A DNA stretch of 64,000 nt, from IMG/VR virus record IMGVR_UViG_3300046490_000164, positions 6,170-70,169 of that record. One strand, 5' to 3'. This DNA is from a virus. The position numbers were made by a program, and so were the translations under genes. Positions 1,172-55,198 of this stretch are shown in pieces. The notes under the pieces were generated by a model. That model searched no databases and was not told the origin of the DNA. It saw only the letters and a program-made list of their open reading frames with translations. How positions within the stretch are numbered: the stretch's first letter is position 1; each line of letters starts with the position of its first letter.

Positions 1172-1381
1172 ATGGGACTTCGACGCGAAAGCACCGCGGT
1201 TACGACTGTCAACGGTCGCCAGATGACCGTGAAGCTCATCGACAACCCCAACGTTGACGACATCGTGTCCACGGAGATGCAGGTGCAGGCCTACTTCGTT
1301 GCCACCAAGACGAGCGACACTGCGCGTAAGGTGAGCTACGACATCCGTGACTACCTCATCCGTCTTGGAGTGGAGCGGTGA
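1172..1381 (+). CDS. small hypothetical protein (69 aa)
   Basis: ORF in the gap between flanking genes. Its end overlaps the next start by 4 nt (ATGA-type coupling). Confidence 0.4.
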   Translation: MGLRRESTAVTTVNGRQMTVKLIDNPNVDDIVSTEMQVQAYFVATKTSDTARKVSYDIRDYLIRLGVER

Positions 1382-2796
1382 CTACCTACGCGCAGGTCAT
1401 CCCGAACCGCTTCGACACCGCGGCTGCTGGGGCCGTCTCCGAGACGAAGGCCGCTTCTGGGGCTAGTGTCAGGACGGTACGACGCCCAACGCGAGGCATC
1501 ACACTCAAGGAAGACACCTTCGCAACCCTTCGCCTGGTGGCCGGCTCCGGGTCGAACCGGAAGCTCATCGACGCAGGTGGGAGAAGGATGGAGGTCGACT
1601 CCTCCGGTACCGCCAAGTACATGGAGATCGGTAACCGTAGGGCTACCGACGTCTACTCGAACTTTCTCCTCCAGGCCATCAACGAGGACCGCTCCGAGAA
1701 GTTCCAAATCCTCGAGACCTTCGGTGAGCCGTACATCTTCCTCTTCGGCCAGCGCGCCAGGATGATGAGCTTCCAGGGCGTCCTCATCAACACCTGGGAC
1801 TTCAACTGGGAAGCGGAGTGGTGGGAGAACTACGATCTCTACCTGCGAGGAACGAAGTGCGTCGAGCAGGACTCCCAGGTCTACCTGTCCTTCGACAACA
1901 CGGTGGTGGGCGGCTACATCGTCCAGGCTTCCGCCACCAAGGATGCGGTGAACCGGAACCTCGTCAACTTCCAGTTCCAGATGTTCGTCACCACCTACTC
2001 GAACTACTCATCCGTCGGGGATCCCACAGCCCTGCCGGTCAGTGAGCGGGACGCCGCTGACGGGAACATGGCTCCCATGGATGTGACTCGAAAGATAACT
2101 GCCGCCGAGCTGGCGCAGTACCGCCCGGAGCTCATCAACCCATTCAACACACCGGACAGGGCGATCGTCGACCCGGTCACTGGGGAGCTGACGTACGTCA
2201 TCAATCCACTGACGGGCAAGACGGTGAAGACCTTGGCGGATGCCCTCCAGGATCTGTCTCCTAGTCGCATCGTGAAGGCGTGGCAGTCGGTGGCAGACAT
2301 CACGAACTCCGCCATCAGCGATGCGAGTGGGATCCTCAACGGCACGGTGATGAGGGTACCGTACGGCTTCGCCGGCTCAATGGTCTACGACGAGGCTGAC
2401 CAGGCTGCGGTGGCGCGAGCTGTGGAGGTCGGCGGGACGGTCACGTATACGACCTTCAGCGACAATGATGATGAGTACGTCGGGTCCTCTGACCACTACG
2501 GGACTTCCAACATTCGTTGGGAGGGCATGTCTCAGTCGGAGTCCGATCAGACGACGGATGCCGTCAACTCCACTCTTCGGGCCGCGCAGATCTGGAACGA
2601 CTTCGGGTACGACCCGGCCTCCACAGCGGCGCAGCAAGAGCTTGCCCGAGTCCTGTCAGCCGCGAAGCTCGGGCTGACATTGGTCACAGGTGTCGGCGCC
2701 GTCGTCGGAGGGTTGGCAGGCGGCATGACCGGTACGAAGGACTTGTCTGCTACCAGTGCCGTGACGCGGCTACCACTCCCTGCCCCACCGAGGTAG
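1378..2796 (+). CDS. hypothetical protein (472 aa) with a C-terminal hydrophobic Gly-rich segment (possible transmembrane anchor)
   Basis: Long ORF. The C-terminus LTLVTGVGAVVGGLAGGMTG is hydrophobic. No family recognised. Confidence 0.55.
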   Translation: MTTYAQVIPNRFDTAAAGAVSETKAASGASVRTVRRPTRGITLKEDTFATLRLVAGSGSNRKLIDAGGRRMEVDSSGTAKYMEIGNRRATDVYSNFLLQAINEDRSEKFQILETFGEPYIFLFGQRARMMSFQGVLINTWDFNWEAEWWENYDLYLRGTKCVEQDSQVYLSFDNTVVGGYIVQASATKDAVNRNLVNFQFQMFVTTYSNYSSVGDPTALPVSERDAADGNMAPMDVTRKITAAELAQYRPELINPFNTPDRAIVDPVTGELTYVINPLTGKTVKTLADALQDLSPSRIVKAWQSVADITNSAISDASGILNGTVMRVPYGFAGSMVYDEADQAAVARAVEVGGTVTYTTFSDNDDEYVGSSDHYGTSNIRWEGMSQSESDQTTDAVNSTLRAAQIWNDFGYDPASTAAQQELARVLSAAKLGLTLVTGVGAVVGGLAGGMTGTKDLSATSAVTRLPLPAPPR

Positions 2797-2799
2797 AAC

Positions 2800-5700
2800 T
2801 TGAGCGCCGTCGCCAAGCCGCTGCATCTCCGTCTGTTCCTGGAGGGGGTAGAGGTGCCTGTGGTGTCTGCACAGGTGACTGTCAACATCAACTCCCCCGC
2901 AGCCGCGGCCATCCAGGTCGTCCCGCTCGACGAGGGGCAACTGCTACGGCCCAGAACGATGGTCCACCTATTCTTCCTCGATACACGGACACGTATCGAT
3001 GGGGGAGGCGGCGTCGGAACGTTGGGGGACTACAAACTTCTCTTCTCTGGGGAGACGATCGGTCTGGCGGTCCAGCAGACACCACAGTCCAGAGGGTTGA
3101 TTCTCCAGTGCGTCGACTTCTCGAGCTACTGGGATACGGCGCACGCCACCACCGTGGAGTACGGTCTCAACGGTAACCTGTTCAACAACCTCAGCTCCCT
3201 GCATGGGGGCTCTGACGCCCACTTCGACGACATCGTCAGCACCCAAGCCGACAAGCTTGTGAAGTGGATACACCAGGCGCCGCTCACCGAGGGGCTCAGC
3301 ACCGTCTCAGGACTGGCCGGTGGGATCATCAGTATGCTGGAGGCCATGGGCGGGGTGTCTCCTCACTTCGTAGGGGTGAACGATTTCTTCACGGTTGCGG
3401 AATTGCGCTGCCGCATTCTGAACCAGATCACAGCCGAAGAGCACGACGACACCGCGACGAATTTGCTTAGTGTCCAAGTCTTCGGAGACTGGCTCCGCAA
3501 CGGTCTCCACAACATCGGCCAGCAGGTGACGTTCCGTGACATCATGAAGTTGCTGTTCCAGTACATCCACTACGATGTGATCCCCAATCCTGCGGCCAAG
3601 TTCGTCGACAGCACAGATGCGAAGTCCACGACAACCGTCAAGGGGCAGACGTACGAGGTCGGTAAGTCTCCATCCATCGTGTCCATCAGTAAGACGTTGG
3701 ACGACCACATCTCCTACCTTCAGCACCAGACCGCATCTCCTACAGACAACATCCCTAGCATCGTAGGGATAGCGACCAACATCTCTGCGGAGCTGGGCAA
3801 GGCCATCACCACGCTCACCGCTCTTGCGGCCTCGAATGCCAGCGCAGCCTCTTCCGCGACGCGTGTGAAGGACTACCTCCAGAGTGCCAAGAGCACGGTC
3901 GATAAGCTGAAGAACGGAGACACTACGTCGTGGTCTCCGTTCGGGCCGGCTCTCGTAGACCTCATCCAGGCCCGTAACGCGCTCGGTGCGATGTCGGGAA
4001 CGACCAAGTCGGCCGATCGAACCGTATCTGACGCACGAAGTCAGCAACTGCACACTCAGATCATCCGTCCTGATTGCTGGTTTGCTCCCCCGCCGGTCTG
4101 CAACGTCATCTTCCCAGAGCAGTACACGCAGTTCACCTTCGATCGTAACTACGTTAGCGAGGTGACGCGGTCCTTGGTCATGGTCTATCCATGGCTTGTG
4201 GGCCCAGACGCTTTGATTGCTGAGAGATTCTTGGCCCCGAACATCGGGTTCCCGGGTACCGATCTGGAGGGCAAGTATCTCGAGGGCGCGCACAAGGTGG
4301 TAGGGCGGGAAGACAGTTACCGAGTCTTGATGAAGCACGAACGCCACATCGGCATCATCGCCAGGTCTGAGTGGCTTTCCAACGTGTCGGCCGGGGCGTC
4401 CAAGTTGGATCCTGGCTCGAAGGACTCACTCAAGCATGGAAGATTGTTGTGGGCAGAACGTGTGGCGCTGTTCCAATTCTTCAAGTACCGATTCGCCCCG
4501 CGCATCCTCAACGTCAGTGGCCGCTTCAACCCCGGGCTGGTGTGTGGGTTCCCTGGCGCTGTCATTCGGGCGCCTTACCGTCCCACACAGCCTGCCTCGT
4601 ATTCGGAGACCGATGCCCTGGACTTCGCTCTGGGGCACGCTGCCGAACTGGGGGCCCCTTCGCATTTCGTAGGCATGATCTCCTCTGTCATGCATTCCGT
4701 AGATCAGAACGGCGGCAACTCGTCGGTAGCTATGCATCACGTTCGTCAGCACAACGGTGTTGACGACGAGTTTCTTGGCGTCATGCAAAGCGTCAAGCAG
4801 CCATCCACGACGAAGGTCGTCAAGGTCGTCCTGCGGTGGGCCGATCTATCGGACAAGGATGTGAAGCTCCGTAAGCTCATGGAGGACGTCACCCCGCAGG
4901 GGTCCGACTCCCTCTCCAAGTCTTCCAGCTCGAGCTCGTCGGTCAAGGTCGTAACCTCCTCTGCTCCGATCGTCTCGGTCGACCCGACGTCTGGTGGTCT
5001 CTCAAACTCGACGCTCCAGAGCACCCACACGATTGTCCAAGAGACAGACGCCCCTCCGACTCTGACGGCTCCCACCCTCACAGCACGATCGCGTCTTCGC
5101 GATGTCGGAGACAGCGTGCTCGTGCCGAGCCCAAATGGCAGGATAGCGGCTGGCGATGTCGGTAAGGGGTTCTTCCCGGGCAGCACCTTGGTCGGAGTCG
5201 AGGTGTTGGGAGATGGATCTTCCGACGTCGATCCGACTACCGGACGGCGACACTTCGCAGCGGTGGCCCTCTACGAGAGGGTAGTGGTGCCGATCACCAG
5301 CAACCTTCCGGTGGAAGAGATCATCAGACCCACCTCCTGGTTCTCCCCCAAGTACTCCAACACGAGAGTTGGCTCGGAGATCTACGAGCCATTCTTCGGG
5401 TGCGCATCCGTAATTGATGGACTTACGGCCTCAACAGGAGGTCCCGCGTCGCCTACGACTACGACAGTTGCCCCGAAGTCAGGGTCCGACAGCAAGGACC
5501 TGTCCACAGACCCAAAGGCAAGCTTGTCCTTCGTCTCCGCGGTAGAGGCCTCCAAGCTCGTGTTCACGATCGAAAGGGCGCTGAACTCTGTCGCGTACAT
5601 CTACGGGAAGGTGAAGACCGCTGGCATGGACGTGGATGCCTTTATCTCGCAGTACAACTCTCGATCCATCGCCACCCTACGTCAGATGTTCGGAGATCTG

Positions 5701-5988
5701 GACTCTCTATCGTTCGACATTGCCGGCGATGGGTCTGTGTCGGTAGAGCCTACTGCCGATGGGTCGACGCCTTCCATTGGCTTCCACACAATGGCCATCC
5801 ATCCACAGCTGGTACAGCACAGCCGGCTGGCTGGTCTGATGGATGACCCCACGCTGCCTCTCAAGCGCATCAACGAGGACGGGGCCGCCTCTGCCGTGCC
5901 ACCTGCGTACGACGTGAGGTCCGAGAAGTACGAGCGTGTCATGACGTATCTCGTGGCTCTCAAGAAGGGCCCGGCCTTCGTAGGTTAG
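2800..5988 (+). CDS. large hypothetical virion-associated protein (1062 aa)
   Basis: 3.2-kb ORF. A GAGGT Shine-Dalgarno-like motif lies 7 nt upstream of the TTG start at 2800. Carries a serine run SSSSSSSVKVV. No catalytic motif recognised. Confidence 0.6.
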   Translation: MSAVAKPLHLRLFLEGVEVPVVSAQVTVNINSPAAAAIQVVPLDEGQLLRPRTMVHLFFLDTRTRIDGGGGVGTLGDYKLLFSGETIGLAVQQTPQSRGLILQCVDFSSYWDTAHATTVEYGLNGNLFNNLSSLHGGSDAHFDDIVSTQADKLVKWIHQAPLTEGLSTVSGLAGGIISMLEAMGGVSPHFVGVNDFFTVAELRCRILNQITAEEHDDTATNLLSVQVFGDWLRNGLHNIGQQVTFRDIMKLLFQYIHYDVIPNPAAKFVDSTDAKSTTTVKGQTYEVGKSPSIVSISKTLDDHISYLQHQTASPTDNIPSIVGIATNISAELGKAITTLTALAASNASAASSATRVKDYLQSAKSTVDKLKNGDTTSWSPFGPALVDLIQARNALGAMSGTTKSADRTVSDARSQQLHTQIIRPDCWFAPPPVCNVIFPEQYTQFTFDRNYVSEVTRSLVMVYPWLVGPDALIAERFLAPNIGFPGTDLEGKYLEGAHKVVGREDSYRVLMKHERHIGIIARSEWLSNVSAGASKLDPGSKDSLKHGRLLWAERVALFQFFKYRFAPRILNVSGRFNPGLVCGFPGAVIRAPYRPTQPASYSETDALDFALGHAAELGAPSHFVGMISSVMHSVDQNGGNSSVAMHHVRQHNGVDDEFLGVMQSVKQPSTTKVVKVVLRWADLSDKDVKLRKLMEDVTPQGSDSLSKSSSSSSSVKVVTSSAPIVSVDPTSGGLSNSTLQSTHTIVQETDAPPTLTAPTLTARSRLRDVGDSVLVPSPNGRIAAGDVGKGFFPGSTLVGVEVLGDGSSDVDPTTGRRHFAAVALYERVVVPITSNLPVEEIIRPTSWFSPKYSNTRVGSEIYEPFFGCASVIDGLTASTGGPASPTTTTVAPKSGSDSKDLSTDPKASLSFVSAVEASKLVFTIERALNSVAYIYGKVKTAGMDVDAFISQYNSRSIATLRQMFGDLDSLSFDIAGDGSVSVEPTADGSTPSIGFHTMAIHPQLVQHSRLAGLMDDPTLPLKRINEDGAASAVPPAYDVRSEKYERVMTYLVALKKGPAFVG

Positions 5989-6042
5989 CGTTCCCAGAAG
6001 GGTAGCCGCTGGTGTAAGGTTGCGCGACAGGAGGATTCCTAC

Positions 6043-6357
6043 ATGGATTCGAGGATCTGCGAGGCTTTCGGGGACGAGCTCCAGAAGATCTCTGGAGAGA
6101 TGACTGGCGCCACCCGCATCGGCCGGAAGCCCATCTCCGTGGAGAAGATGCTGGAGAACGAGGCGACCGTGACCGGCCTGCCGGAAGAGTTCGTCCAGCA
6201 GACGATGGCGAAGGCTGCGTCCGCCTTCCTGAAGGTGAGCAAGGTCAGCGGCAAGACCCTGGCCGCTGTCGGCGCAGGCGCTGTGGGTGCCCTGACCGCT
6301 CGCCAGGCCAACGAGGACCGGAAGCTCGGTCGCATGGTCCGCAAGCAGCAGCAGTAG
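6043..6357 (+). CDS. hypothetical protein (104 aa)
   Basis: ORF preceded by an AGGAGG Shine-Dalgarno motif at about 6030. Has a hydrophobic AVGAGAVGALTA segment. Confidence 0.45.
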   Translation: MDSRICEAFGDELQKISGEMTGATRIGRKPISVEKMLENEATVTGLPEEFVQQTMAKAASAFLKVSKVSGKTLAAVGAGAVGALTARQANEDRKLGRMVRKQQQ

Positions 6358-6365
6358 GAGCCGCC

Positions 6366-7037
6366 GTGGACAGTGGCCTGGTGTACGCCAGCATGTTCGA
6401 CGAGCTCGAGAAGCTGGCGGAGATCAGCCTTGCCGGGCTCTCCCCGCAGCGTGCCCTAGAGTCGGGTGCCCACGCGATGCCCATGGAGACCTCTGGCTAC
6501 GACAAGGCCGTCTCCATCCTGAACAGAGCCCAGGCGTCCCCTGTGGTGCCCCAGGTGAAGACGGCCGCCCCTCGAGTGCCCTTCAACGCCGACCTCCCGG
6601 CCATCAACAGCTTCACCGGTGCCAAGAAGCGCAAGAAGCGCAAGCACGAGGTCGCGGTGGAGCGGGGCAAGAGTCTCGCCGGCCACACCCTCGGCGGCAT
6701 GGGCATCGGCCGGCTGGTCGGTGAGATGTCCCACGGCCCGAAGGTCCCGATGGCCGACGCCGCGCGCCAGGCGCTGCATGGTAAGAGGTGGTGGGGCGCT
6801 GTGGCAGGTGGTAGCATCGGCGTCGGTGAGTTCGTCCGCAAGAGGATCATGGACGCCAAGGAGGCCAAGATGGAGAAGAAGTCCTCCATCCCTGCCATCT
6901 CCTCCCCAGGGCGCGCTCTACAGGCATCGCGGCAAGTCGCCAAGGTGCAGGGACACGGCAGGATGAGCGGTCCCAGTCTTCGCGGTCAGCTCGGCGGTCG
7001 TGTGCTGGGCAGGAAGTTCATCCCTCCAGGAGCATGA
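6366..7037 (+). CDS. hypothetical protein (223 aa) with a basic KKRKKRKHE patch
   Basis: ORF tiled tightly with its neighbours. The Lys/Arg cluster suggests nucleic-acid binding or an internal-protein role; this is inference only. Confidence 0.45.
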   Translation: MDSGLVYASMFDELEKLAEISLAGLSPQRALESGAHAMPMETSGYDKAVSILNRAQASPVVPQVKTAAPRVPFNADLPAINSFTGAKKRKKRKHEVAVERGKSLAGHTLGGMGIGRLVGEMSHGPKVPMADAARQALHGKRWWGAVAGGSIGVGEFVRKRIMDAKEAKMEKKSSIPAISSPGRALQASRQVAKVQGHGRMSGPSLRGQLGGRVLGRKFIPPGA

Positions 7038-7471
7038 GCATGCGCAAGCTGACCAAGACCGGCGGCATCTACGACACCCTCGAGGAGGCCCGTGAGCGCT
7101 TCCACGTCATGGTCTCCACCCGCGAGGACAAGCGCGCCGAGACCGACGCCCTGTTCGAGAACGCCAAGGCCTCCCGGGCCCGCGACCGCGCAGTGGTGAA
7201 CAAGCACTTCGTGCAGGCCCCGGCCGCCGTCACCATGGCGACGAACCTCCAGGCCGAGATGCCGAAGGAGGCGTCGGTCGCCCCGCACTTCGATGCCTGG
7301 CTCGAGAAGAACGCCGGCGCCTTCATGAGCGATGCCCAGAAGCGCTACCCGGAGCTGCTGAAGGTCTCCGGCCTGGAGCAGGGCAAGCTCCCCCAGGCGC
7401 TGTCGAAGGGCAAGGCCGGCGGCGCCAAGCCAACACCGGTGCAGAGCTCCCTCTCGGGCGGCAGCTACTAG
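7034..7471 (+). CDS. hypothetical protein (145 aa)
   Basis: ORF overlapping the previous stop by 4 nt. Confidence 0.45.
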   Translation: MSMRKLTKTGGIYDTLEEARERFHVMVSTREDKRAETDALFENAKASRARDRAVVNKHFVQAPAAVTMATNLQAEMPKEASVAPHFDAWLEKNAGAFMSDAQKRYPELLKVSGLEQGKLPQALSKGKAGGAKPTPVQSSLSGGSY

Positions 7472-7474
7472 TGA

Positions 7475-8338
7475 ATGGAGATGCTTGCAGACACGGCCCA
7501 GGCCGTTGACTGGGTCCTGGACAAGCTCGCCGCGGCACGGCGTACCTCCACACCTGTCATCGGACCGGTCAAGACGGTCGAGCAGAAGAAGCAGGAGCTC
7601 GCGGCGAAGAAGCCGAAGGAGCTAGAGCTCTGGCAGACGTGGAAAGTCGGCGGCATGAAGCCGAAGGACCTCGACCCTCTGCTCAAGAGCTTCTCCAACC
7701 TCATCAACTCCCGCGTCGGCCTCTTCAAGAATCGAGTCGAGATCCCGACCACCGCCATCGAGCACGTTCACAAGAAGGAGTTCGTGAACGCGCTCAAGAC
7801 CTACGACCCGAGCCGTGGGGCGGCGCTGGGCACGCACGTCATGAACCGGCTCCAGAAGGCCGGGCGCTACATCGAGCAGAACAAGAACTTCGCGGTCATT
7901 CCGGAAAACATCTCCAAGTACATCGGCTCCTTCAACGCGGTGAAGTCCGAGCTGCGCGAAAAGCTGGGATACGAGCCTGGGGACTCCGAGATCCACGACC
8001 ACATCCTGGCCACCAACCACCCGAAGCTCGGCGGTCTCGCCCTGCGCGACATCAAGCGCATCAACAAGGAGCAGCGCAAGGGGCTCATCCAGACCGGGCA
8101 CGAGACCGACCTCATCAACACCAACGAGATGGACCCGCGGGAGCAGGAGGTGGCGCAGCTCATCTACCACCAGCTCACCCCGCTCGAGCGGTCGGTGCAT
8201 GAGTACACCTTGGGGCTGAACGGGAAGCCCGTCCTCCGCCCGGGCGCCATCGCCAAGAAGCTGGGGATCGATGGGTCGAAGGTGTCGAAGGTGAAGAAGG
8301 CAGTCTTCGAGAAGATGCGCCCCTACCTAGACACATGA
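7475..8338 (+). CDS. sigma-70 family RNA polymerase sigma factor (phage-encoded)
   Basis: Region 2-like segment FVNALKTYDPSRGAALGTHVMNRLQKAGRYIEQN resembles the canonical ...[21 protein letters not shown]... core-binding/-10 recognition block. The C-terminal helix-turn-helix IAKKLGIDGSKVSKVKKAVFEKMR resembles sigma region 4.2. Confidence 0.6.
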   Translation: MEMLADTAQAVDWVLDKLAAARRTSTPVIGPVKTVEQKKQELAAKKPKELELWQTWKVGGMKPKDLDPLLKSFSNLINSRVGLFKNRVEIPTTAIEHVHKKEFVNALKTYDPSRGAALGTHVMNRLQKAGRYIEQNKNFAVIPENISKYIGSFNAVKSELREKLGYEPGDSEIHDHILATNHPKLGGLALRDIKRINKEQRKGLIQTGHETDLINTNEMDPREQEVAQLIYHQLTPLERSVHEYTLGLNGKPVLRPGAIAKKLGIDGSKVSKVKKAVFEKMRPYLDT

Positions 8339-8550
8339 GCAACGTCGACCTCAGAAACGAGAGACTTCAGAAGCTGCGGGACGCGGCTCGGGCCTACGTG
8401 AAGGCAGAGAAGGATCGTATCGACCAGGAAGTCGCCATCCTACAAGCCGTGTTGGATGGGCGCACCGGAGGGGCCGGTGTGCAGCGCTTCACTGTAGACG
8501 TCGTGAGCGCTGTCGCCCAGAACGACCTGGCAGCCTACCTCTTGGAGTAG
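8335..8550 (+). CDS. small hypothetical protein (71 aa)
   Basis: ORF overlapping the upstream stop by 4 nt. Confidence 0.4.
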   Translation: MSNVDLRNERLQKLRDAARAYVKAEKDRIDQEVAILQAVLDGRTGGAGVQRFTVDVVSAVAQNDLAAYLLE

Positions 8551-8553
8551 CCC

Positions 8554-8865
8554 GTGGAATCATTTATCAAGCTCATCGCGGACACCTGGGGACTTGCGGG
8601 CCTTCTCATCCTGTCCCCGCTCATCGGGATGATCTACCTCTGGAAGGCCAACCTGAAGCTCCAGGCCGACCTCCAGGGGCTGAACGACAAGCGCATCGAC
8701 GACTCCATCAAGACCTCAGACAAGATGCTCGCCATGGTGAAGGAGCAGGCCAGTCTCTCGACCGAGACGAACCTGGCCCTTGACCGCCTGGGGGATGCGC
8801 TGTCCATCCTCCAGAACTCGGGGCGGATCGACCTCGGCCACATCAAGGCTGGACCAAGGGGCTGA
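8554..8865 (+). CDS. small membrane protein (103 aa; one N-terminal transmembrane helix)
   Basis: Hydrophobic stretch GLAGLLILSPLIGMIYLW near the N-terminus. Confidence 0.45.
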   Translation: MESFIKLIADTWGLAGLLILSPLIGMIYLWKANLKLQADLQGLNDKRIDDSIKTSDKMLAMVKEQASLSTETNLALDRLGDALSILQNSGRIDLGHIKAGPRG

Positions 8866-8866
8866 C

Positions 8867-9136
8867 ATGAAGTTCCTGAAGTTCTTCCTACACCGACGGC
8901 GTCCTAGTATCCTCCTGAGGCAGGCCGAGACGAAGCCGGTCTCCTCAGCGATGGCGGCCCCGGTGCAGAGTGGTGGGGGAAGTCCTCAGGCAGATCCCAG
9001 CGGCTCCGTGACTAGCGTGTACGAGGTCGTGGGAAAGGCTTTGGAGCAGGCAACCGAAGAGAAGAAGAAGACCAGGACGGCGGTCCAACGTATCCTCGAT
9101 ATCGTGGCCCCGCCCGCCAACACCACCAAGCGTTGA
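8867..9136 (+). CDS. small hypothetical protein (89 aa), basic N-terminus
   Basis: The ATG lies 2 nt after the previous stop. The longer track ORF 8780..9136 overlaps the preceding gene and was trimmed to this ATG. Confidence 0.35.
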   Translation: MKFLKFFLHRRRPSILLRQAETKPVSSAMAAPVQSGGGSPQADPSGSVTSVYEVVGKALEQATEEKKKTRTAVQRILDIVAPPANTTKR

Positions 9137-9146
9137 GGAGACAACG

Positions 9147-9692
9147 ATGCGGCTTCCGAACGGCGATGCGGTGATGAAGTGGAACGGAAGGTTCGACCTG
9201 GAGTGGTGCATCGGCGGGAAGATCTTCCACGACCAGGCACAGAACCAGGTCTACGACCAGGGCGAGCAGGACATCCTCGAGACCTTCTTCCGCGCCGCCA
9301 CAGCCCCAACCGGCTTCTACCTCGGCCTCCTGAAGACGACCTACGTCATCAACGAGCCCGATACGATGACGACCATCGGACCGGCGGAACTCACCAACGC
9401 CACTGCGAGCGGCTACACTGCCCGTCAGGCAGTGTCCCGCGACGCCATCGGGTGGCCAACCTCTGCCCCGTCGGGAGGCGACTGGCAGGTCACTTCCCTC
9501 CAGGTGACATGGACGGCTGGCGGCGCCTGGACCGACACTGCCGGCTTCCTCTTCCTCATGAGCGGCGGAGTCGCAACTCCTGGCAACACGGCCAGCGGGC
9601 GCGTCATCGCCGTGGCGAATCTCTCGCCTACTCGTCAGCTCCAGGCCAATGGCGATACCTTGAAGGTCACCTACTCGCTGAAGCTGCAATAG
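9147..9692 (+). CDS. putative virion structural protein, paralog A (181 aa)
   Basis: GAGGAG Shine-Dalgarno motif upstream. The C-terminal block ...GDTLKVTYSLKLQ is paralogous to the C-terminus of the next gene, ...GNTLNVTYTHTFS. Confidence 0.5.
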   Translation: MRLPNGDAVMKWNGRFDLEWCIGGKIFHDQAQNQVYDQGEQDILETFFRAATAPTGFYLGLLKTTYVINEPDTMTTIGPAELTNATASGYTARQAVSRDAIGWPTSAPSGGDWQVTSLQVTWTAGGAWTDTAGFLFLMSGGVATPGNTASGRVIAVANLSPTRQLQANGDTLKVTYSLKLQ

Positions 9693-9725
9693 CTTCAAGT
9701 GCTTCGCATACAAGGAGAACACGAC

Positions 9726-10346
9726 ATGATCGACAAGGCAGGCACCAAGGACATGGCAATGGTCGGTGTGGGTCTAGGCCACGGCGACTTCGGCAGGGTC
9801 ATCGGCGTCTTCGACGTCTGGACCACCAGGAACGGCCTCCCGTGCGCCGCGCTGACGAGGGCTGACGGAACCAAGGCGTACCGCACCACCGCCGACAACA
9901 CGATGACCACAGCGATGCTGAACCTGCTGCGGGACATCACCTGGCGGCTGGGCGTCAACGCGTCCGGCCCAGTCGGCGGTCTTTGGTCGGCCGGACCCTA
10001 CATCGGCCTCGCCCTCAACGCGCAGGTCATCACTGCGGCCACCACGCTCGCCACCGCTGGCACCTTCGAGGCGTCCGGCAACGGCTACACCGGCCGCATC
10101 GCCCCGACCTGGGTGGCCGGTGGCAACGGGCAAGGCAACAACACCGCCTCCCCGGCCTCGTGGACCGCCTCTGGCGGCAACCTCGGTGGCGCAGCGCTCG
10201 GCCAGCTCTTCACCACCCCAGCCGCCGCCACCACCGGCTCTGCCCCGAACGTCATCCTCATGACGTTCGCCACACTCAACGGCGGTCCATTCACCGTGGC
10301 GACCGGCAACACCCTCAACGTCACCTACACCCACACCTTCAGCTAA
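9726..10346 (+). CDS. putative virion structural protein, paralog B (about 207 aa)
   Basis: AAGGAGA Shine-Dalgarno motif then ATG at 9726. Shares the C-terminal motif with 9147..9692. Ala/Thr/Gly-rich beta-type composition. Confidence 0.5.
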   Translation: MIDKAGTKDMAMVGVGLGHGDFGRVIGVFDVWTTRNGLPCAALTRADGTKAYRTTADNTMTTAMLNLLRDITWRLGVNASGPVGGLWSAGPYIGLALNAQVITAATTLATAGTFEASGNGYTGRIAPTWVAGGNGQGNNTASPASWTASGGNLGGAALGQLFTTPAAATTGSAPNVILMTFATLNGGPFTVATGNTLNVTYTHTFS

Positions 10347-10355
10347 GGGTAGGCG

Positions 10356-10640
10356 ATGGCTACGGTTGGGACCGCCACGCTCAACTTCGGGTCGTTCCCA
10401 GGCTCGAACGAGGCGAGCGTGGCGGTCACCGGCCAAGGGACCATCACGACCGGCTCGGTGGCCGAGGCGTACTTCATGGCCGACTCGACGTCGGACCACA
10501 CCGCCTCCGATCACGCGTACGCCCCGACGTTCATCGAGCTGACGTGCGGCGCGCTCGTCAACGGCACCGGCTTCACGATCTACGGACGCAGCGCAGAGAA
10601 GATGCAGGGCACTTTCCAGGTCCGCTGGGTCTGGAGCTAA
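10356..10640 (+). CDS. small putative structural protein (94 aa)
   Basis: ORF with a Shine-Dalgarno motif upstream; ends ...GTFQVRWVWS. Sits in the same run as the paralogs above. Confidence 0.45.
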   Translation: MATVGTATLNFGSFPGSNEASVAVTGQGTITTGSVAEAYFMADSTSDHTASDHAYAPTFIELTCGALVNGTGFTIYGRSAEKMQGTFQVRWVWS

Positions 10641-10650
10641 GGAGTAGCGC

Positions 10651-12174: not shown

Positions 12175-12195
12175 GTTCCACCTTCAGGAGGCAGC

Positions 12196-12387
12196 ATGGC
12201 CATCGCCACCATCTACATCTGCGACCGCAAGAAGTGTCAGAAGACCGTCTCCGACGCGGCCGTGTCCGCCTTGCACATCGACATCATCGACCAGGCCGCC
12301 GGGACGCAGGCTCCGACAATCATCACCGACTTCATCCTCTGCCCCGACTGCAAGAAGGAGCTCGACGACCTCCTCACCGCGGAGTAG
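12196..12387 (+). CDS. small zinc-ribbon protein (63 aa)
   Basis: AGGAGG Shine-Dalgarno motif upstream. Cys pattern C-x4-C ... C-x2-C (ICDRKKC ... CPDC). Confidence 0.5.
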   Translation: MAIATIYICDRKKCQKTVSDAAVSALHIDIIDQAAGTQAPTIITDFILCPDCKKELDDLLTAE

Positions 12388-30678: not shown

Positions 30679-31488
30679 ATGGCTGACACCGACATGACTC
30701 CGACCACCAACGTCCCACTCGTTCCACAGACCGACCCAAGCGCCAAGGGCATGAGCACGTCAGAGGGCAAGATGGCTGCGGCCATGACCGCCCTGTGCTT
30801 CCTTGGCACGGTGGTACCGACCCTGATGACCATGCTCACCGACATCAAGACGAACTTCCCTGGATGGGGCTGGACTGGGCCAGCCATCGGCATCGTATCG
30901 ATTCTGGCCGGTGCCCTCACCAGCCTCGGCTACATGAACAAGCGTACGGAGCTCAAGCTCGGCCTCATCGACTCCGGCAAGAAGATCGCCGTCCTCCTGC
31001 TCCTCCTAGGGGCGACCAACGCTTCGGCTTCTCCATTGGTCCTCTGCCTACAGAATTGCGAGCCGCAGGTCAGGATGATGAAGGCCGTGAGCCCGGACTC
31101 CACTGTCCCCGTGGTGGAGACGGCCCCTGCCCCCAACCTGTGGTTCGGTCCCGCGGTGGGACTCAACGCCTTCACGCGCTTCTCCGCCGATAATGCCTGG
31201 CAGGCCGGCGTCATCCCGGGGATCGGCTACGGCATCAACTGGAAGCCAGCGAGCTGGACGGTCACCTCGAGCTTGATCGGGCTCAACTTTTATCTCCAGG
31301 CAGCCATGTCGAAGGCCGGCAACGGGCCCAGCACGTTCAACATCGACGTGCTGCCGGTGCTGACCTTCATGGACCTTCTGGCCGTGGGGTACGGGCACCG
31401 CTTCATGTTGGCCACCGAGGCCGGGCAGAAGGACACTGGAGGCGTTCTTCTCACTGTAGGCATCCTCAAGACCATCGGGACTCCGTGA
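30679..31488 (+). CDS. polytopic membrane protein (269 aa, at least 4-6 predicted TM segments); holin-like candidate
   Basis: AGGAGA Shine-Dalgarno motif upstream. Several hydrophobic helices, for example AAMTALCFLGTVVPTLMTML, GPAIGIVSILAGALTSLGYM and IAVLLLLLGATNASASPLVLCL. Its stop overlaps the start of the peptidase gene. Confidence 0.55.
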   Translation: MADTDMTPTTNVPLVPQTDPSAKGMSTSEGKMAAAMTALCFLGTVVPTLMTMLTDIKTNFPGWGWTGPAIGIVSILAGALTSLGYMNKRTELKLGLIDSGKKIAVLLLLLGATNASASPLVLCLQNCEPQVRMMKAVSPDSTVPVVETAPAPNLWFGPAVGLNAFTRFSADNAWQAGVIPGIGYGINWKPASWTVTSSLIGLNFYLQAAMSKAGNGPSTFNIDVLPVLTFMDLLAVGYGHRFMLATEAGQKDTGGVLLTVGILKTIGTP

Positions 31489-35656: not shown

Positions 35657-35796
35657 GCTACTCGACCGAATCGATCTGTCGAGAAGCACCTAGCTCCGGG
35701 ATCCACGAACGCTACGCCGGCGTCAGGGCGCTGTGGATCAAGGTCATCATCCGAGCCGTCTTCGACTGGGTCTCCTACAGAGACAGCCCGCGTCTC

Positions 35797-36012
35797 ATGC
35801 AACGCAAGCTGGCAGACAGCGCCAGATCGTGGATCTTCGACGAGAACGAGCTCTTCAATGGGTTCCCTAACGTATGCCGGTGCCTGGATATCGACCCAGA
35901 CCTCGTACGGAAGTGGGCGGGGGCCATGTCGCGCGACCAGGTCGCCAAGATCGAGCACCTCGAGCGTGAGAAACACCTCGAAGTCCCATATCGCTTCCAG
36001 CGGAGGTCGTGA
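35797..36012 (+). CDS. small hypothetical protein (71 aa)
   Basis: First ATG in the open frame after the 35656 stop; the track ORF 35464..36012 was trimmed to it. Leaves a 140-nt apparently non-coding gap upstream. Confidence 0.3.
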   Translation: MQRKLADSARSWIFDENELFNGFPNVCRCLDIDPDLVRKWAGAMSRDQVAKIEHLEREKHLEVPYRFQRRS

Positions 36013-36015
36013 GTA

Positions 36016-39055: not shown

Positions 39056-42000
39056 ATGGCCTCAGCAGAGATGAAGAGCTTCCTCGAGTCGCGCCTGCTG
39101 GACCTGGACGCCTCGATCGACCTGTCGGCCGGCTCCCCGGCCCAGACGAAGTTCATCGATCCAGTCTTGCAGTACCTGGGGACGGATCCGTTCGAGACAG
39201 ACATCGACCTGTTCATCACGACCAGGCTGCGGCAGGAGTTCCCAAAGCTCTTCAGCGGGGATCCTGGTGCCGTGCGTGACTCCTTCGTGAAGCCACTCAT
39301 CCTCGTGCTCGAGCCCTTCAAGCGCGAGACGCAGTCGGTCAAGAGGGGACAGTCGTTGGCCGATCCCTCCATGCTCTCGGACAGCGATGCTGACGCACTC
39401 GTGGCGAATGTCTTCGACGAGCGGCCGCAGGGAAGTCGGACGAGTGGGGTGGTGCGGGTGTTCTACGCCAACCCCACCAACGTGCGAACGGAGCTGACCG
39501 TCAGGTTCTTCACCCCAGGGGGGCTCAACTTCTATCCAACGAACCCGACGTCCATGGCCGCGGAGGAGATGGTCTTCAACCGCCAGGGTTCCCTGTTCTA
39601 CATGGACGTCATCGTGTCAGCCGAGAGCGAGGGGAGTCAGTACGGTACGGACGCCAACACCGTCACCGGCGTGTCCGGCCTGTTCGGTGTGGTGAAGGTC
39701 ACCAACCCACGGGCCTTCGTAGCTGGCTCTGCTCGGTTGGACACTCCGTCCTTCGTCGCCCAGGGGCGTGAAGCACTGTCGGAGAGGTCTCTCGTCTCGC
39801 GTCGAGGAGCTCGTGCACGCACCTCGGACGTCTTCAAGTCCGAGATCAAGTCGGTGCAAGTCATCGGCGCCAATGATGAAGAGATGATGAGAGACATCCT
39901 GGTGGCCGAGGCACCTGGCCATGCCTGGATGCTGGGACAGGTGATGCTGTTCGGTAGGGTTGCCTACGTGCGAGTGCGCGTCATCGACACTTACGATGGG
40001 ACCTCCTACTCTCCCCCAGTCAAGGGGGACCGCATTTTCGTCTACCTCGATCAGTTCTCGAACGGTGGGGCGTGGAGGTCCCTTCCCCAGAATAGAAGGT
40101 TCGTACGTCTCACCGTAGAGGATGTGATCGTCTCGGACATGACCGGGCAAGCCCCTTACCAGGCTTCCTTCCTGGTGCGCTGGTCGGACGATCCGTCCAC
40201 TGTGGGATCCTCCCTCCCCTTGGGTACGAAGCTTCCCCTCACCGTCGAAGGAGGCTTCCTCAAGAAGGGGACGATTCGGATCTCATCCATCCCGGACCGC
40301 GGAGCAGTCAGCTTGGTGGTGAATGACCAGGCCGTACACGTCTTCGGCCACACCGACATCTACGCCCGCCCATCCGTGCGTAGTGTGTCGAAGGCCGTGA
40401 TCTCGTCCTTGACGGACGCGGATCCTTTCCTGAGCCGTACTTCCCTATCCACTATGGCCGGGTCCAACGCCCTATCGGACGGCTCGTTCGACTTCACCAT
40501 GGCGGGTGTGTTGGTCGGGGATCTCCTCACGATCGAAAGTGGGGACGACGCTGGGACCTACCGCATTGGAAAGGTAACGGGCCATCAGATCTACCTCGTC
40601 TCCCCAATGACGAAGACGTCCAATGGGCTTCGGTACGTCATCACCCGCTCGATCTCGATCGACCCGTTCGAGCCCAAGATCAAGAAGCTGCCATTCGGTG
40701 ATGCGCTCACTGGCCTCCAAACCAACATCGGGTCGAACCTTTTCTACTTCGTAGCCAACGTCTTGGACTATGGAGCCAAGGTCGGGGACACGGTCAGAAT
40801 AGAGGCTGGGCTCGACACCGGGGACTTCACCATAATCGGGTTCCACCCAACCCTGGGCGGGACCGGGGTCTTTGTGGGCCGTCCGGCTGCGGCATCGAAC
40901 GGTGCCCTGGCCTACGAAATCTTCACTCCCCAAGACCCTGTAGCCAGGCCTCTGGTGCGCATCAGAGATATTCAGCTGCTGGACTCGGCCACGAAGGCTA
41001 CAGGCATCTCTGTACCTCCAGCCGGACCGGTGGCTGTCGTTCCTACCAACGCATTCACTACCGCTCAGGTTCGCGGCTCGAGCCAGGTAGCCAGCGGCTA
41101 TATCCTGCCGGCGTTCACGAAGACGGCCGGGCCGACCGCAGTGATCTCTGATGTGGCGGCGTGGGCGGGTGATCGTAGGTACTCCCAAGGTTTCGATTCC
41201 TTCATTGGCGGGGTATTCAAGGCGTTCTTGGCCAACGACGGAACTCAGTCAGAGCTCCTGTTCCCCCCCGAGGTCTTCGACCGGTGCAGCTGTATCCTGG
41301 CGGTGCCCGAGACGACGGACGCGCGGGAGAACTTCCCGCCGATCGATCCGAACCCTGGCGACGCCATCACGATTCGAAACGGCCCCAACAAGGGAAGCTA
41401 CCTCGTCAAGAGCATCAGGAAGTGGAAGTACAACAGCACTGTCGGTAGTGTGGTGGTCACATCGTGGGTGTACTGCGTTCAGATCCACGGGACCTTCCCT
41501 GTGGATGTCTTCGGAGAGATCGCCAACTTCTGCAAGGCGGCTGGGGTGGCGCTGCCCGATGATCTGTACCAGGCCGTAGCCCTGGGGCCCTCATTCTTCT
41601 CGAATGTCGTCGCCAACATCGGCTCCTACCTTGACTTGGCGATTCGCAGGTTCGGTGGCTCCTCTCCCGGCGCAGCAGCTCTACAGGCCAGCGCTGCGTT
41701 GCTCTTCAAGGTAGGGTACGACTGCGGCGCCCCGGCTACAGGTACCTTGCGGTCGTACTTCCTCCGCCCTCAACTCTTTCAGCAGCACACCGGGGAGACG
41801 GATACTCCGACTCTTTACAAGTACACCGCCAATAACGGCTCTACCTCATTCTTCCGTCCTTCCCTCTACCGCTACGTGCGCAACCAGGTGTCGCCTGGTC
41901 GGCTGGACGGGGACGCCGCCTACGGTGATCGCCCACGCGATGATCGCACAGTCGGATCGTCCATCTTCTTCGACGACGATTCCAAGCCGACGATGTTCGA

Positions 42001-43480
42001 ACAGGGCGTAAGCGTCGGGGACATCATCTCGATCAACGAGGAGCTACCACTATATGGGTCCTACGCCGTCCCGGCCATCTCGACGGTTTCCGGCACCTCT
42101 CTCGTACAAGTACCAACTGGCCCAGCAGATCTCTTCGCCCCCACCGTCGTAGGGAACCTGGTGTATGTGGGCCAGGGGGATGACCGAGGAATGTATTTGG
42201 TCGTCGGTCGGCCGGATGGAAGATCACTCATACTGGATCGCCCACTTCGGTCATCTACCCCCACGCCTCTGGGCTCTGGGTCCTGCAAGGCATCTTCTTC
42301 AGCGGGACAGGATGTGATCGTCAAGCTCGACGGCTACGCCTTTGACGTCTCGTCTGTAGGTAAGTTCATAACCCTATTCGGGACCGACCACGACCCACGA
42401 ACTGACACAACCTACGAGGGCTCGTATCGCATTCACTCTGTCATCGACAGCAACACCGCGGTGGTCGAGCGCACGAGTCCGTTCCCCCAAAGCCCGGTAT
42501 CGGGGTGGTTCGTGGTGACGGATGCGCCGGCAACTACCCCGTCCGCTGTGGGGTCTGTAGGTGGGACCGAGCTCTTCGGACTCCTACCTATTCGCGTCTA
42601 CAACGAGCTGGCCAGTGAGTACGCCATCACAGACGTATCGACCGTACCTCGAGAGTCCAAGATCACGGTAACCGGCTCCCCGAAGGCTGGGTATGGGCAG
42701 CCATACGTCATCTATCGTTCCGACGTCCGCAGGGTGACTCCTACGGAAATGGCTCAGAACAAGGACGGTTTCCTCTACTACTTCGACACAGAGGTGACGT
42801 CCCTGGCTCCTGGTGTAGAGGCCAACATTCCACAGAACTCGTACCTAACTGCCGAGGACGGGACCTACGAGAGCGCTGGGTATCGATTCGAGGTGGACGA
42901 CACGACCCTCAGTTACTCCATGAGGGAGTCGGGGCGCCTCGTACTACCTACGAAGATCCTACCGATCGGCGTGCCGGACACGGAAGATGGGCATGTCAGT
43001 CTGGTGGGAGCCCCCATCAGCATCGACTACGAGTCGGCTGAAGTCGTGGCTCGACTTCAGGAGTTCCTGGACAACCCAGAAGACCGAGTCTCCTCCGCCA
43101 ATCTTCTCGCCAGGCACTTCCTCCCGTCCTACGTCTCATACGATGCCACGTACTACGGAGGCTCGGCTCCAAGTGTCGTGGCGCAGGACATCCTCGACTA
43201 CATCAACAACATGCCCATAGAGACGGCAGTTGATGTGTCTCAGCTCCAGAAGCTGATCGAGCAGAGAGGGGGTAACCCTGTGACGCCGACCAAGGTGTCG
43301 GTCACCACACACGACTGGGGCCGGAAGGTCTGGGTCGAGTTCAGCGAGAACGAGCTGGGTGGGACCACCCTAGTTCCGTATGACGGCACACCTCGAGTGA
43401 CTGCCTTGCTGTCTGGGGATGATGTGTCTGGGGCTTCCCCAGTTCCGGACGGTGAGAGGGTCAATCTCGTGAGAGGGTAG
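39056..43480 (+). CDS. giant hypothetical virion protein (1474 aa); baseplate or tail component candidate
   Basis: 4.4-kb ORF starting directly after the previous stop. Contains a C7 homopolymer at about 41253-41259. No enzymatic motif recognised. Confidence 0.6.
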   Translation: MASAEMKSFLESRLLDLDASIDLSAGSPAQTKFIDPVLQYLGTDPFETDIDLFITTRLRQEFPKLFSGDPGAVRDSFVKPLILVLEPFKRETQSVKRGQSLADPSMLSDSDADALVANVFDERPQGSRTSGVVRVFYANPTNVRTELTVRFFTPGGLNFYPTNPTSMAAEEMVFNRQGSLFYMDVIVSAESEGSQYGTDANTVTGVSGLFGVVKVTNPRAFVAGSARLDTPSFVAQGREALSERSLVSRRGARARTSDVFKSEIKSVQVIGANDEEMMRDILVAEAPGHAWMLGQVMLFGRVAYVRVRVIDTYDGTSYSPPVKGDRIFVYLDQFSNGGAWRSLPQNRRFVRLTVEDVIVSDMTGQAPYQASFLVRWSDDPSTVGSSLPLGTKLPLTVEGGFLKKGTIRISSIPDRGAVSLVVNDQAVHVFGHTDIYARPSVRSVSKAVISSLTDADPFLSRTSLSTMAGSNALSDGSFDFTMAGVLVGDLLTIESGDDAGTYRIGKVTGHQIYLVSPMTKTSNGLRYVITRSISIDPFEPKIKKLPFGDALTGLQTNIGSNLFYFVANVLDYGAKVGDTVRIEAGLDTGDFTIIGFHPTLGGTGVFVGRPAAASNGALAYEIFTPQDPVARPLVRIRDIQLLDSATKATGISVPPAGPVAVVPTNAFTTAQVRGSSQVASGYILPAFTKTAGPTAVISDVAAWAGDRRYSQGFDSFIGGVFKAFLANDGTQSELLFPPEVFDRCSCILAVPETTDARENFPPIDPNPGDAITIRNGPNKGSYLVKSIRKWKYNSTVGSVVVTSWVYCVQIHGTFPVDVFGEIANFCKAAGVALPDDLYQAVALGPSFFSNVVANIGSYLDLAIRRFGGSSPGAAALQASAALLFKVGYDCGAPATGTLRSYFLRPQLFQQHTGETDTPTLYKYTANNGSTSFFRPSLYRYVRNQVSPGRLDGDAAYGDRPRDDRTVGSSIFFDDDSKPTMFEQGVSVGDIISINEELPLYGSYAVPAISTVSGTSLVQVPTGPADLFAPTVVGNLVYVGQGDDRGMYLVVGRPDGRSLILDRPLRSSTPTPLGSGSCKASSSAGQDVIVKLDGYAFDVSSVGKFITLFGTDHDPRTDTTYEGSYRIHSVIDSNTAVVERTSPFPQSPVSGWFVVTDAPATTPSAVGSVGGTELFGLLPIRVYNELASEYAITDVSTVPRESKITVTGSPKAGYGQPYVIYRSDVRRVTPTEMAQNKDGFLYYFDTEVTSLAPGVEANIPQNSYLTAEDGTYESAGYRFEVDDTTLSYSMRESGRLVLPTKILPIGVPDTEDGHVSLVGAPISIDYESAEVVARLQEFLDNPEDRVSSANLLARHFLPSYVSYDATYYGGSAPSVVAQDILDYINNMPIETAVDVSQLQKLIEQRGGNPVTPTKVSVTTHDWGRKVWVEFSENELGGTTLVPYDGTPRVTALLSGDDVSGASPVPDGERVNLVRG

Positions 43481-43760
43481 CGAAGGTCACCAGACCTGTG
43501 TACGGGTCGAACTCGGTCTTACATAGAACGCAACGCAGCACCTTGTTGGGGAGGGCGGAGCCTGGAGAGAAGGGGCGGGAGGAGTGCAGAGTAGGCTCCA
43601 CCGCCCCACCGCCGCACGTAGGGCACTTGGAGTTTCTGAAGAGCGCCTGCTCGCGCACAATGAGAGGAGTAAGGAGGTCTTCGTACAGCTTGTTCCCCTT
43701 CTCATCTCTGGCATCGAGAATCTGCCGAACCTTGTCAGGATCCATCTCGTGGAAGCTCAT
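43461..43760 (-). CDS. small zinc-ribbon protein (99 aa); the only leftward gene inside the rightward structural block
   Basis: Protein-like composition. CPTCGG ... CVLCKTEFDP gives a C-x2-C ... C-x2-C pattern. Its 3' end overlaps the end of the 39056 gene by 20 nt. A TATACT -10-like hexamer on the + strand lies in the 43761-43829 gap. Confidence 0.5.
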   Translation of the reverse strand: MSFHEMDPDKVRQILDARDEKGNKLYEDLLTPLIVREQALFRNSKCPTCGGGAVEPTLHSSRPFSPGSALPNKVLRCVLCKTEFDPYTGLVTFATLSRD

Positions 43761-43829
43761 GGAGTTCTTCCCCTAGTTAGGCCCACATTCTATACTCAGG
43801 GCCGGCTACCAACCACCTAGAGAGACTGA

Positions 43830-54781: not shown

Positions 54782-54905
54782 TAGGTGCGGGCAACGCTGG
54801 GCACTCGTCAGGCCTGGGGTGTAGGTTCGATCTCGTGGTCGGACTTCCGGCCCTGTACTTCGCTATACGTCCTAGGCACTTCGTACTCTCTCGCCTGGAG
54901 TGGCG

Positions 54906-55142
54906 ATGTTCGATGACACCAACGGCCTCTACATCCAACGCCTTACGGATGGAAAGGTTCGCATCGTTGTAAGAAAGGACGCAACCCCGGGTGCGGAGAT
55001 CCTATTCGACGTGATCTTGACTGCCACGCAGTGGAGCCGAGCAGTGGCGTCCGTGGTTCGGGACTGCAAGGACTGCCAGGCCTACTTCATAGCGTACAGC
55101 CAGCACATGGGTACCGATCCAACAGACAAGGATGAGGAGTAA
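54906..55142 (+). CDS. small hypothetical protein (about 78 aa)
   Basis: GGAG Shine-Dalgarno motif 5 nt upstream of the ATG at 54906; the track begins at the GTG at 54900. Followed immediately by the hairpin terminator. Confidence 0.45.
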   Translation: MFDDTNGLYIQRLTDGKVRIVVRKDATPGAEILFDVILTATQWSRAVASVVRDCKDCQAYFIAYSQHMGTDPTDKDEE

Positions 55143-55149
55143 GAAAAGA

Positions 55150-55177: not shown

Positions 55178-55198
55178 TTCTACGTCAGGGGTGCCGGC

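Follow-up and report, generated by a model that had tools for sequence, protein, structure and literature searches.

A divergent sigma-70-family sigma factor from an uncultivated phage lineage, encoded between tail and baseplate genes

Introduction

What does a sigma factor do when its gene sits among the tail and baseplate genes of a phage, and which RNA polymerase (RNAP) does it serve? We addressed this question for a gene at 7475..8338 (+ strand, ATG start, 287 amino acids) in a 64-kb stretch of viral DNA, positions 6,170 to 70,169 of the IMG/VR record IMGVR_UViG_3300046490_000164. This whole stretch is called the window below; the genome measures at least 134 kb, more than half of it outside the window. 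An original prediction, made from the sequence alone, had assigned the product to the sigma-70 family and quoted two peptides in support. The open reading frame (ORF) and both peptides are present exactly as described, and the family call proved correct. The ORF encodes a complete, highly divergent sigma-70-family sigma factor, an identity that rests on NCBIfam matches, a family profile, fold matches and homology to gp10 of Salmonella phage Arash.

Identification of the sigma factor

Searches with the single sequence gave weak signals. There was no significant sigma-domain match in Pfam (the best was Sigma70_r3 at E = 0.059, with no Sigma70_r2 and no Sigma70_r4), and phmmer against sequences of the Protein Data Bank (PDB) returned RpoS at E = 0.2 only. 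The PHROGs family "RNA polymerase sigma factor" was matched at E = 3.9e-4, and NCBIfam gave weak, collinear matches to the RpoD-type (2.7e-6), FliA/WhiG (1.8e-5) and SigB/F/G (1.1e-4) models, the last of which aligns residues 68-284 of 287 to model positions 7-225 of 227; the SigK and SigE models align to residues 208-282. A profile was built from an alignment of 47 homologs and searched against 177,635 PDB sequences, yielding RpoS as the best match (E = 5.8e-13) and also picking up SigA, SigB, RpoD and FliA. Its alignment to RpoS is one collinear stretch that runs from region 2.2 to the end of region 4.2 and reaches RpoS residue 327, placing the peptide YDPSRGAALGTHVMNRLQKAGRYIEQ opposite regions 2.2-2.4 and the peptide IAKKLGIDGSKVSKVKKAVFEKMR opposite the region 4.2 helix-turn-helix EVGQEIGLTRERVRQIQVEALKRLR. 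The original prediction had named an unsuccessful profile search as its refutation; by that measure, Pfam with the single sequence nearly rejects the call and the family profile supports it.

Among the 47 family members, 15 match Pfam Sigma70_r3 (best E = 3e-9). Pfam Sigma70_r2 was matched neither by the single sequence nor by any of the 47, and Pfam Sigma70_r4 gave no match. All 24 of the 24 NCBIfam families matched by any member are sigma-70 models, and the resemblance to sigma factors at the family level far exceeds chance.

The AlphaFold2 model is all-helical, with a mean predicted local distance difference test score (pLDDT) of 80.9 and low confidence only at residues 1-3, 22-31 and 208-218. 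Structure comparison recovered the overall sigma-70 fold: with Foldseek, the 50 best matches in the PDB were all sigma-factor chains (E from 1e-7 to 3e-5, probability 1.0), at low template modelling scores (0.2-0.35) of the kind expected of a flexible multi-domain protein. Among the viral predicted structures of BFVD, nearly every named match is an annotated phage sigma factor, the significant matches having 12-18% identity. The gene model is consistent across data sets, independent gene callers giving the identical 287-residue product in three further assemblies of the same phage. Its third-position GC of 0.91 is typical of real genes in this 62% GC sequence, and it is the only sigma-like ORF in the window.

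Domain organisation and conserved residues

With boundaries that are approximate, the protein divides into an N-terminal extension (residues 1-45, 7475-7609), sigma-2 (residues 46-140, 7610-7894), sigma-3 (residues 144-206, 7904-8092), an acidic, low-confidence linker resembling region 3.2 (residues 207-220, 8093-8134) and the sigma-4 helix-turn-helix (residues 221-287, 8135-8335), all on the + strand. Sigma-2 was recognised by the SigB/F/G model from residue 68 onwards, by the alignment to RpoS regions 2.2-2.4 and by conserved residues; sigma-3 (region 3.0-3.1) by Sigma70_r3 matches in relatives together with the collinear RpoS alignment; and sigma-4 by the profile, which extends through region 4.2, and by AlphaFold2 helices at residues 221-284 with a pLDDT of ~90. 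The acidic loop at residues 207-220 lies at the expected site of the region 3.2 "finger". At the position of sigma-70 Y430 (region 2.3) the family has W, H or Y throughout, R131 at the position of sigma-70 R441 is invariant in the family, and the recognition helix of sigma-4.2 hardly varies from clade to clade.

The N-terminus consists of a conserved helix, ALxWVLxKLSAAKK, whose W13, L15, K17 and A20 vary little or not at all, and of a Lys-rich linker after it that is variable. Because many relatives are only 235-260 amino acids long and start at profile position 35-55, the first ~45 residues are a subfamily-specific extension. We also considered an N-terminal "targeting" motif common to sigma and to the products of two genes upstream of it (p104 and p223, described below) and rejected it, as a profile of the sigma N-terminus matches sigma alone.

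Family size and classification

In a large protein collection we found 108 homologs of 269-334 amino acids, nearly all between 275 and 305. An exhaustive hidden Markov model search of 1.84 billion cluster representatives returned 391 at E <= 1e-30, 1,419 at <= 1e-10 and 7,843 at <= 1e-3. Judged by these sequence searches, the family is sizeable and clearly separated from the bulk of cellular sigma factors, forming an orphan three-domain sigma clade of hundreds of 50%-identity clusters that standard Pfam annotation overlooks. No member reached any of the curated NCBIfam or Pfam cut-offs for RpoD/SigA, RpoS, FliA/WhiG, SigB/F/G, sporulation or extracytoplasmic function (ECF) sigma factors, the best single-sequence scores being 20-27 bits against cut-offs of 190-385 bits. 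The window protein itself scores 10-20 times below every curated cut-off (for example 24.6 vs 189.6 bits for FliA/WhiG) and is therefore not assigned to any named subfamily. The weak matches of family members are divided between RpoD/RpoS-type models and FliA or SigB/F/G-type models, and the window protein stands equally far from groups 1/2 and from group 3.

RpoS, SigB/F/G and FliA/WhiG have the same three-domain architecture with collinear regions 2.1-4.2; the window protein differs from bacterial group 2/3 sigma factors in its unique N-terminal extension and in being phage-encoded. It is also unlike the minimal T4 gp55 type, a single sigma-2-like domain of ~185 amino acids, having sigma-2, sigma-3 and sigma-4 in 287 residues. 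Characterised complete phage sigma factors are its structural neighbours in BFVD, yet they show no detectable sequence similarity to it in the phage database at E < 0.01, the Arash group excepted.

Genomic context and comparison with phage Arash

The sigma gene belongs to a cassette that lies between hub-proximal tail genes and baseplate-wedge genes in an uncultivated phage lineage whose contigs reach ~200 kb. The rightward block in which it had been placed is real: nearly every gene from 23 to 55142 is on the + strand, the exception being 43461..43760. The order of genes around sigma (products of ~1140, ~69, ~460 and ~1000-1060 amino acids, three small genes, sigma, then ~70 and ~100 amino acids) is kept in eleven relatives with GC contents of 0.50 to 0.66. 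The genes of characterised complete phage sigma factors occupy early or middle regulatory regions and are not known to sit within a tail/baseplate module.

Upstream of sigma, a 472-residue tail protein (1378..2796, +) carries a confident tail-tube/Hcp-like fold domain that matches tube-initiator or hub-adaptor proteins of Photorhabdus virulence cassettes (PVC), antifeeding prophages (AFP), pyocins and phage baseplates. It is followed by a 1062-residue hub-proximal tail protein (2800..5988, +), which is directly upstream of the cassette and keeps this position in all loci. Downstream, a 1474-residue Baseplate_J-type protein is encoded at 39056..43480 (+); its ortholog in the relative L016, a ~1550-amino-acid gene downstream of sigma, has a Pfam Baseplate_J match. 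Against PDB sequences, the 1137-, 1062- and 472-residue neighbours matched nothing significantly.

At the nucleotide level the region matched none of the 50,697 deposited phages, and the sigma protein matched only Arash and three related Vibrio phages. The best match is Arash gp10 ("RNA polymerase sigma factor RpoS", OQ632216; PMC10585845), at 4e-7 by tblastn and, against the window proteins, at 1.7e-12 by blastp and 2.6e-14 by phmmer. Identity is ~30% and is limited to the N-terminal half (residues 48-173). At 234 amino acids, gp10 has no N-terminal extension; it passes the Pfam Sigma70_r3 cut-off (35.7 bits vs 25.3) and has a weak r2 match. Like the window gene, gp10 comes after gp6-like and >1000-residue hub-proximal virion proteins and before the Baseplate_J-type gp13. 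The virion proteins gp6 and gp13 are homologous to the 472- and 1474-residue window proteins, and the virion "cell wall hydrolase" gp8 matches the N-terminus of the 1062-residue protein weakly and collinearly. Since these homologs are common to both phages and the order of gp6, gp8 and gp10 is identical in Arash and in the window, the linkage between hub genes and the sigma gene is ancient.

Arash further encodes its own beta/beta' RNAP and a second sigma factor, gp196, and the window lacks counterparts of both. We confirmed gp206 of Arash as a genuine beta-beta'(N) fusion (Rpb2_6 at 2.8e-56, Rpb1_1, Rpb1_2) and found that gp216 carries a beta'(C) domain (Rpb1_5); the Arash RNAP loci are L015 30093-34670 and L014 8441-10261. 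This type of RNAP forms a large metagenomic family, either fused (~1500-1600 amino acids) or split into beta (~1115), beta'N (~380) and beta'C (~607). A review of jumbo phages reports no sigma factor in its main group of RNAP-encoding phages, group 1 (PMC7824862).

The sigma cassette and candidate partner proteins

The cassette p104-p223-p145-sigma-p71-p103 is conserved and tightly packed. It opens with p104 (6043..6357, +), which has a Gly/Ala-rich hydrophobic C-terminal segment, and p223 (6366..7037, +), which is conserved in closer relatives only. The conserved p145 (7034..7471, +) lies directly upstream of sigma, and the conserved p71 (8335..8550, +), a small helical protein, is translationally coupled to it; the last gene, p103 (8554..8865, +), is also conserved and has a predicted N-terminal transmembrane segment. 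Using phmmer, we found homologs of p145, p71 and p103 in 8/8 clade relatives covered and homologs of p104 at the same position in 7/8. By blastp the entire cassette is also present in L016; in L005, the most divergent locus, no cassette homolog was detected by phmmer or blastp. None of the five proteins p104, p223, p145, p71 and p103 has a family match, and p71 and p145 matched nothing significantly among PDB sequences.

In all clade members the p145 stop codon is 3-5 nt upstream of the sigma ATG. The p71 start overlaps the end of sigma here (ATGA), and in most relatives the terminal cTGGAG codons of sigma are the Shine-Dalgarno sequence of p71. This dual role therefore places a constraint on the sigma C-terminus and on sigma-p71 coupling. 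The same cTGGAG spells the conserved C-terminal Leu-Glu codons of sigma, as seen at the junction (8320-8340) and in L004, L009, L010, L011 and L016.

The original prediction had put forward two Zn-ribbon ORFs as cognate regulators. Both exist, at 12196..12387 (+; C-x4-C...CxxC) and at 43461..43760 (-; CxxC...CxxC), but the proposed role found no support: neither matched anti-sigma families (ZAS HxxxCxxC, FlgM, RsbW/SpoIIAB, AsiA) or any other family beyond noise in Pfam and NCBIfam. The 63-residue product of 12196..12387 was found in the same phage only, inside a lineage-specific insertion and absent from relatives, and the 99-residue product of 43461..43760 has no detectable relative in IMG/VR viral contigs. 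The latter is the only reverse gene of the 55-kb rightward block, and it shares 20 nt with the 3' end of the Baseplate_J-type gene.

Being conserved and translationally coupled, p71 and p145 are better partner candidates than the Zn-ribbon ORFs, and p71 is the best candidate for a cofactor or anti-sigma of the sigma factor. A phage sigma factor that needs a small phage partner is known from T4, where gp55 works with the co-activator gp33, and p71 might be compared with gp33; p71 itself is without detectable similarity to anything, and the analogy is functional speculation. A match of p145 to an H-NS model (residues 13-118 to model positions 23-128 of 137) is non-significant at E = 0.13 and possibly due to chance.

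Promoter-like elements

Upstream of the sigma gene there is a single sizeable gap (5989-6042), and in it lies a promoter-like element that heads the cassette (5991..6020, +). It is composed of TTCCCA (5991-5996), an 18-nt spacer ending in GGTG and TAAGGT (6015-6020); within 400 nt upstream of the sigma gene itself there is no promoter-like element. The pattern TT(G/C)(G/C)CA-N17/18-(GTG)TAnnnT occurs at the orthologous position in 9/10 distinct lineages, L005 being the one that fails, with a per-locus shuffle frequency of 0.004-0.08. The orthologous gaps of relatives read TTCCCA-N17-TAACGT; TTGGCA-N17 followed by TACAGT, TAGTCT or TAGATT; TTGGCT-N17-TAGTCT; and TTCTCA-N18-TAGGGT. The strict pattern has only seven occurrences on both strands of the 64 kb. 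Two further intergenic elements of the same type are TTCCCC-N17-TATACT upstream of a 906-residue gene (43768..43796, +) and TGGGCA-N18-GGTG-TAGGTT upstream of the 80-residue gene 54900..55142 (54798..54827, +). The former lies in a 69-nt gap beside the reverse gene (43461-43829), face to face with a leftward promoter-like element, TAGAAT.

Promoters of the E. coli consensus are depleted in the window: 2 were found vs ~9 expected. Scans of 20 kb each (1-20, 24-44 and 44-64 kb) gave 0, 1 and 1 vs 2.4, 3.7 and 3.2 expected, none of them intergenic. Phage-specific late promoters, which the original prediction took a phage sigma factor to imply, are plausible. The conserved promoter-like elements look sigma-A-like and are not assignable to the phage as opposed to the host sigma factor.

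The divergent intergenic region that starts the tail block (L001 146-269) lies just outside the window, on its left. It has a similar rightward element together with an invariant 8-mer, CTTATGCC, which is also present in L004, L006, L008, L009, L011, L016 and L019, at phage GC contents of 0.50 to 0.66. Read leftward it is GGCATAAG, (GG)CATAAG, at a fixed 17 nt from xGCAAC. This leftward element is a candidate non-canonical promoter or operator facing the ribonucleotide reductase/ligase block. As a target candidate, GGCATAAG is more "phage-specific"-looking than the rightward elements, but it has only one occurrence per genome segment examined. We rejected a composite, CTTATGCC-N28-GGTGSTASC, as a recurring "late promoter", since it recurs in the window no more than chance predicts; two divergent promoters at one site are the better reading. 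Searching the loci for conserved 8-10-mers without regard to genes returned orthologous coding positions only.

Mechanism and alternative explanations

We consider it likely that the sigma factor takes the place of the host primary sigma factor on the host core RNAP and guides this enzyme to phage promoters. It would bind the host core enzyme in the manner of T4 gp55, SPO1 gp28/gp34 and phiEco32 gp36, and so switch the transcription programme. It would be made from the polycistronic cassette, with transcription either starting at the TTCCCA-N18-TAAGGT element or reaching the cassette from the block-start promoter by read-through. The promoters that it targets would probably be those of the tail-block type, TT(G/C)(G/C)CA-N17/18-(GTG)TAnnnT, which would make the cassette self-reinforcing; an alternative target is the block-start element GCAAC-N17-(GG)CATAAG, which is leftward and non-canonical. 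Complete phage sigma factors are recruiters of host core enzyme (review PMC7824862), and phiEco32/7-11 gp36, SPO1 gp28/gp34 and the SigF/G-like sigma factors of Bacillus phages reprogramme host RNAP to middle or late promoters (PMC4331800, PMC8948821, PMC13401047).

Several observations weigh against this reading. The candidate promoters are sigma-A-like (TTGnnn-17-TAnnnT) and readable by a host sigma factor. Their -35-like hexamer varies by clade (TTCCCA vs TTGGCA) while the sigma-4.2 helix stays nearly constant, which argues against a simple match between sigma and the -35 element; for the same reason an analysis of covariation between hexamer and helix was uninformative. Sigma-70 W433/W434 are replaced by Thr/Asn and Lys/Arg, leaving the melting mechanism uncertain. 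FliA-type sigma factors show a similar replacement, and other alternative sigma factors are likewise without the WW pair. No relatives of the phage were found in 185,579 GTDB representative genomes searched for hosts or prophages. Finally, the phage of the closest cultured relative of sigma, Arash gp10, has a beta/beta' of its own, and with 64 kb covered by the window in a genome measuring at least 134 kb, there is room elsewhere for a divergent phage polymerase.

These last two points bear directly on the idea that a phage-encoded multisubunit RNAP, and not the host enzyme, has the sigma factor as its specificity subunit; we regard this idea as quite unlikely. In its favour, gp10 and the gp206/gp216 polymerase of Arash have similar spectra per residue in the particle data (2.0 for gp10, 2.3 for gp206 and 2.0 for gp216, ratios computed here). 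However, an RNAP profile that detected its positive control at E = 0 picked up no RNAP-like ORF, either in the window or in the ~20 kb searched for each of 11 relatives, and none of the large unannotated ORFs has a DxDxD catalytic motif of RNAP type. Six sigma-bearing contigs of 141-198 kb are all absent from the 74 viral contigs with an Arash-type RNAP (80 of the 84 matches being listed), and the sigma list has no contig size in common with the 120 RNAP matches listed. An apparent link between RNAP and the tail module, through contigs of equal size (29,503) in the list for the 472-residue tail protein, was discarded as a coincidence between different samples. Within the limits of a motif-seeded search and partial genomes, the lineage of the window seems to be without a polymerase of its own.

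It is also conceivable, if unlikely, that the sigma factor is a virion component, produced late along with the tail proteins and then packaged; delivered together with the DNA, it would redirect host core RNAP to phage immediate-early promoters at the very outset of the next infection. The gene is inside and co-oriented with the tail/baseplate genes, and the linkage of hub, small genes and sigma extends to the distant Arash. Purified Arash particles yielded gp10 at 100% coverage (24 unique peptides, 467 spectra), and the preparations also contain the phage RNAP subunits (PMC10585845). That "virion" list, however, comprises 116 proteins including such obvious enzymes as ribonucleotide reductases, ligases and kinases, and its authors concede possible carry-over (PMC10585845). 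The extra N-terminal helix and variable Lys-rich linker, absent from shorter relatives, would fit a targeting signal, but Arash gp10 has no such extension and the N-terminal motif is not common to other cassette proteins. The cassette has its own promoter-like element, so late expression is not required, and apart from Arash we found no precedent for a packaged sigma factor in the literature. If delivery took place, host core RNAP would be captured for immediate-early transcription before any phage gene expression, and the homolog in the Arash lineage would travel with packaged phage beta/beta' as a virion holoenzyme.

A non-initiating role, as a sigma-derived DNA-binding regulator or as a decoy that sequesters host core RNAP or a host factor, strikes us as very improbable. 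Such a role would accommodate the extreme divergence, with no curated sigma model passed, and the loss of the W433/W434 melting residues. Against it, three sigma domains and the linker are collinear across hundreds of homologs of conserved length, and the aromatic or His residue equivalent to Y430, the Arg equivalent to R441 and the 4.2 helix-turn-helix are conserved.

Other features of the window

In L016 the neighbours of the ~1550-residue gene are one-to-one homologs of window genes at 33.5-43.5 kb, which identifies 9.1-33.5 kb of the window as a lineage-specific insertion of fibre genes. This insertion (9147-33500, ~24 kb) separates the sigma cassette from the conserved baseplate genes and is absent from L016. 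It contains three giant fibre-like ORFs (1467, 3080 and 1531 amino acids, at 12.4-30.6 kb) with apiosidase-like glycosidase, collagen-binding-like and immunoglobulin-like domains, and an ORF for a papain-family cysteine protease (31485-32255). An apparent gap of 359 nt at 35657-36015 is probably coding rather than intergenic; its translation looks like a plausible protein, and the corresponding position of L016 is taken by a 132-residue gene.

Third-position GC varies along the window. Genes of the sigma cassette and the small insertion genes next to it (6043-12387) mostly have values of 0.83-0.96, with a lower value of 0.76 for p71, and the conserved tail/baseplate genes (1378-5988, 32274-54781) have 0.70-0.81. 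This heterogeneity could reflect expression level or different origin. Beyond 55.2 kb, a leftward block encodes RusA (58145-58606) and a protein with a weak RecA-like match (62866-63987). Between the two convergent blocks, a strong GC-rich hairpin of 11 pairs with T-rich flanks (55149-55178) is probably a bidirectional terminator.

Significance

Phage-encoded sigma factors are a classic route to host transcription takeover, and finding one is in itself unsurprising. What is unusual is its setting in an uncharted phage lineage, at a conserved site amid tail and baseplate genes. About 30 other window proteins have no Pfam or PHROG match, and in this lineage the sigma factor provides a firm functional anchor. 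Its linkage to hub and baseplate genes, extending to the RNAP-encoding Arash-like phages, raises the question of virion-delivered phage sigma factors, which, if true, would be a new route of transcriptional takeover.

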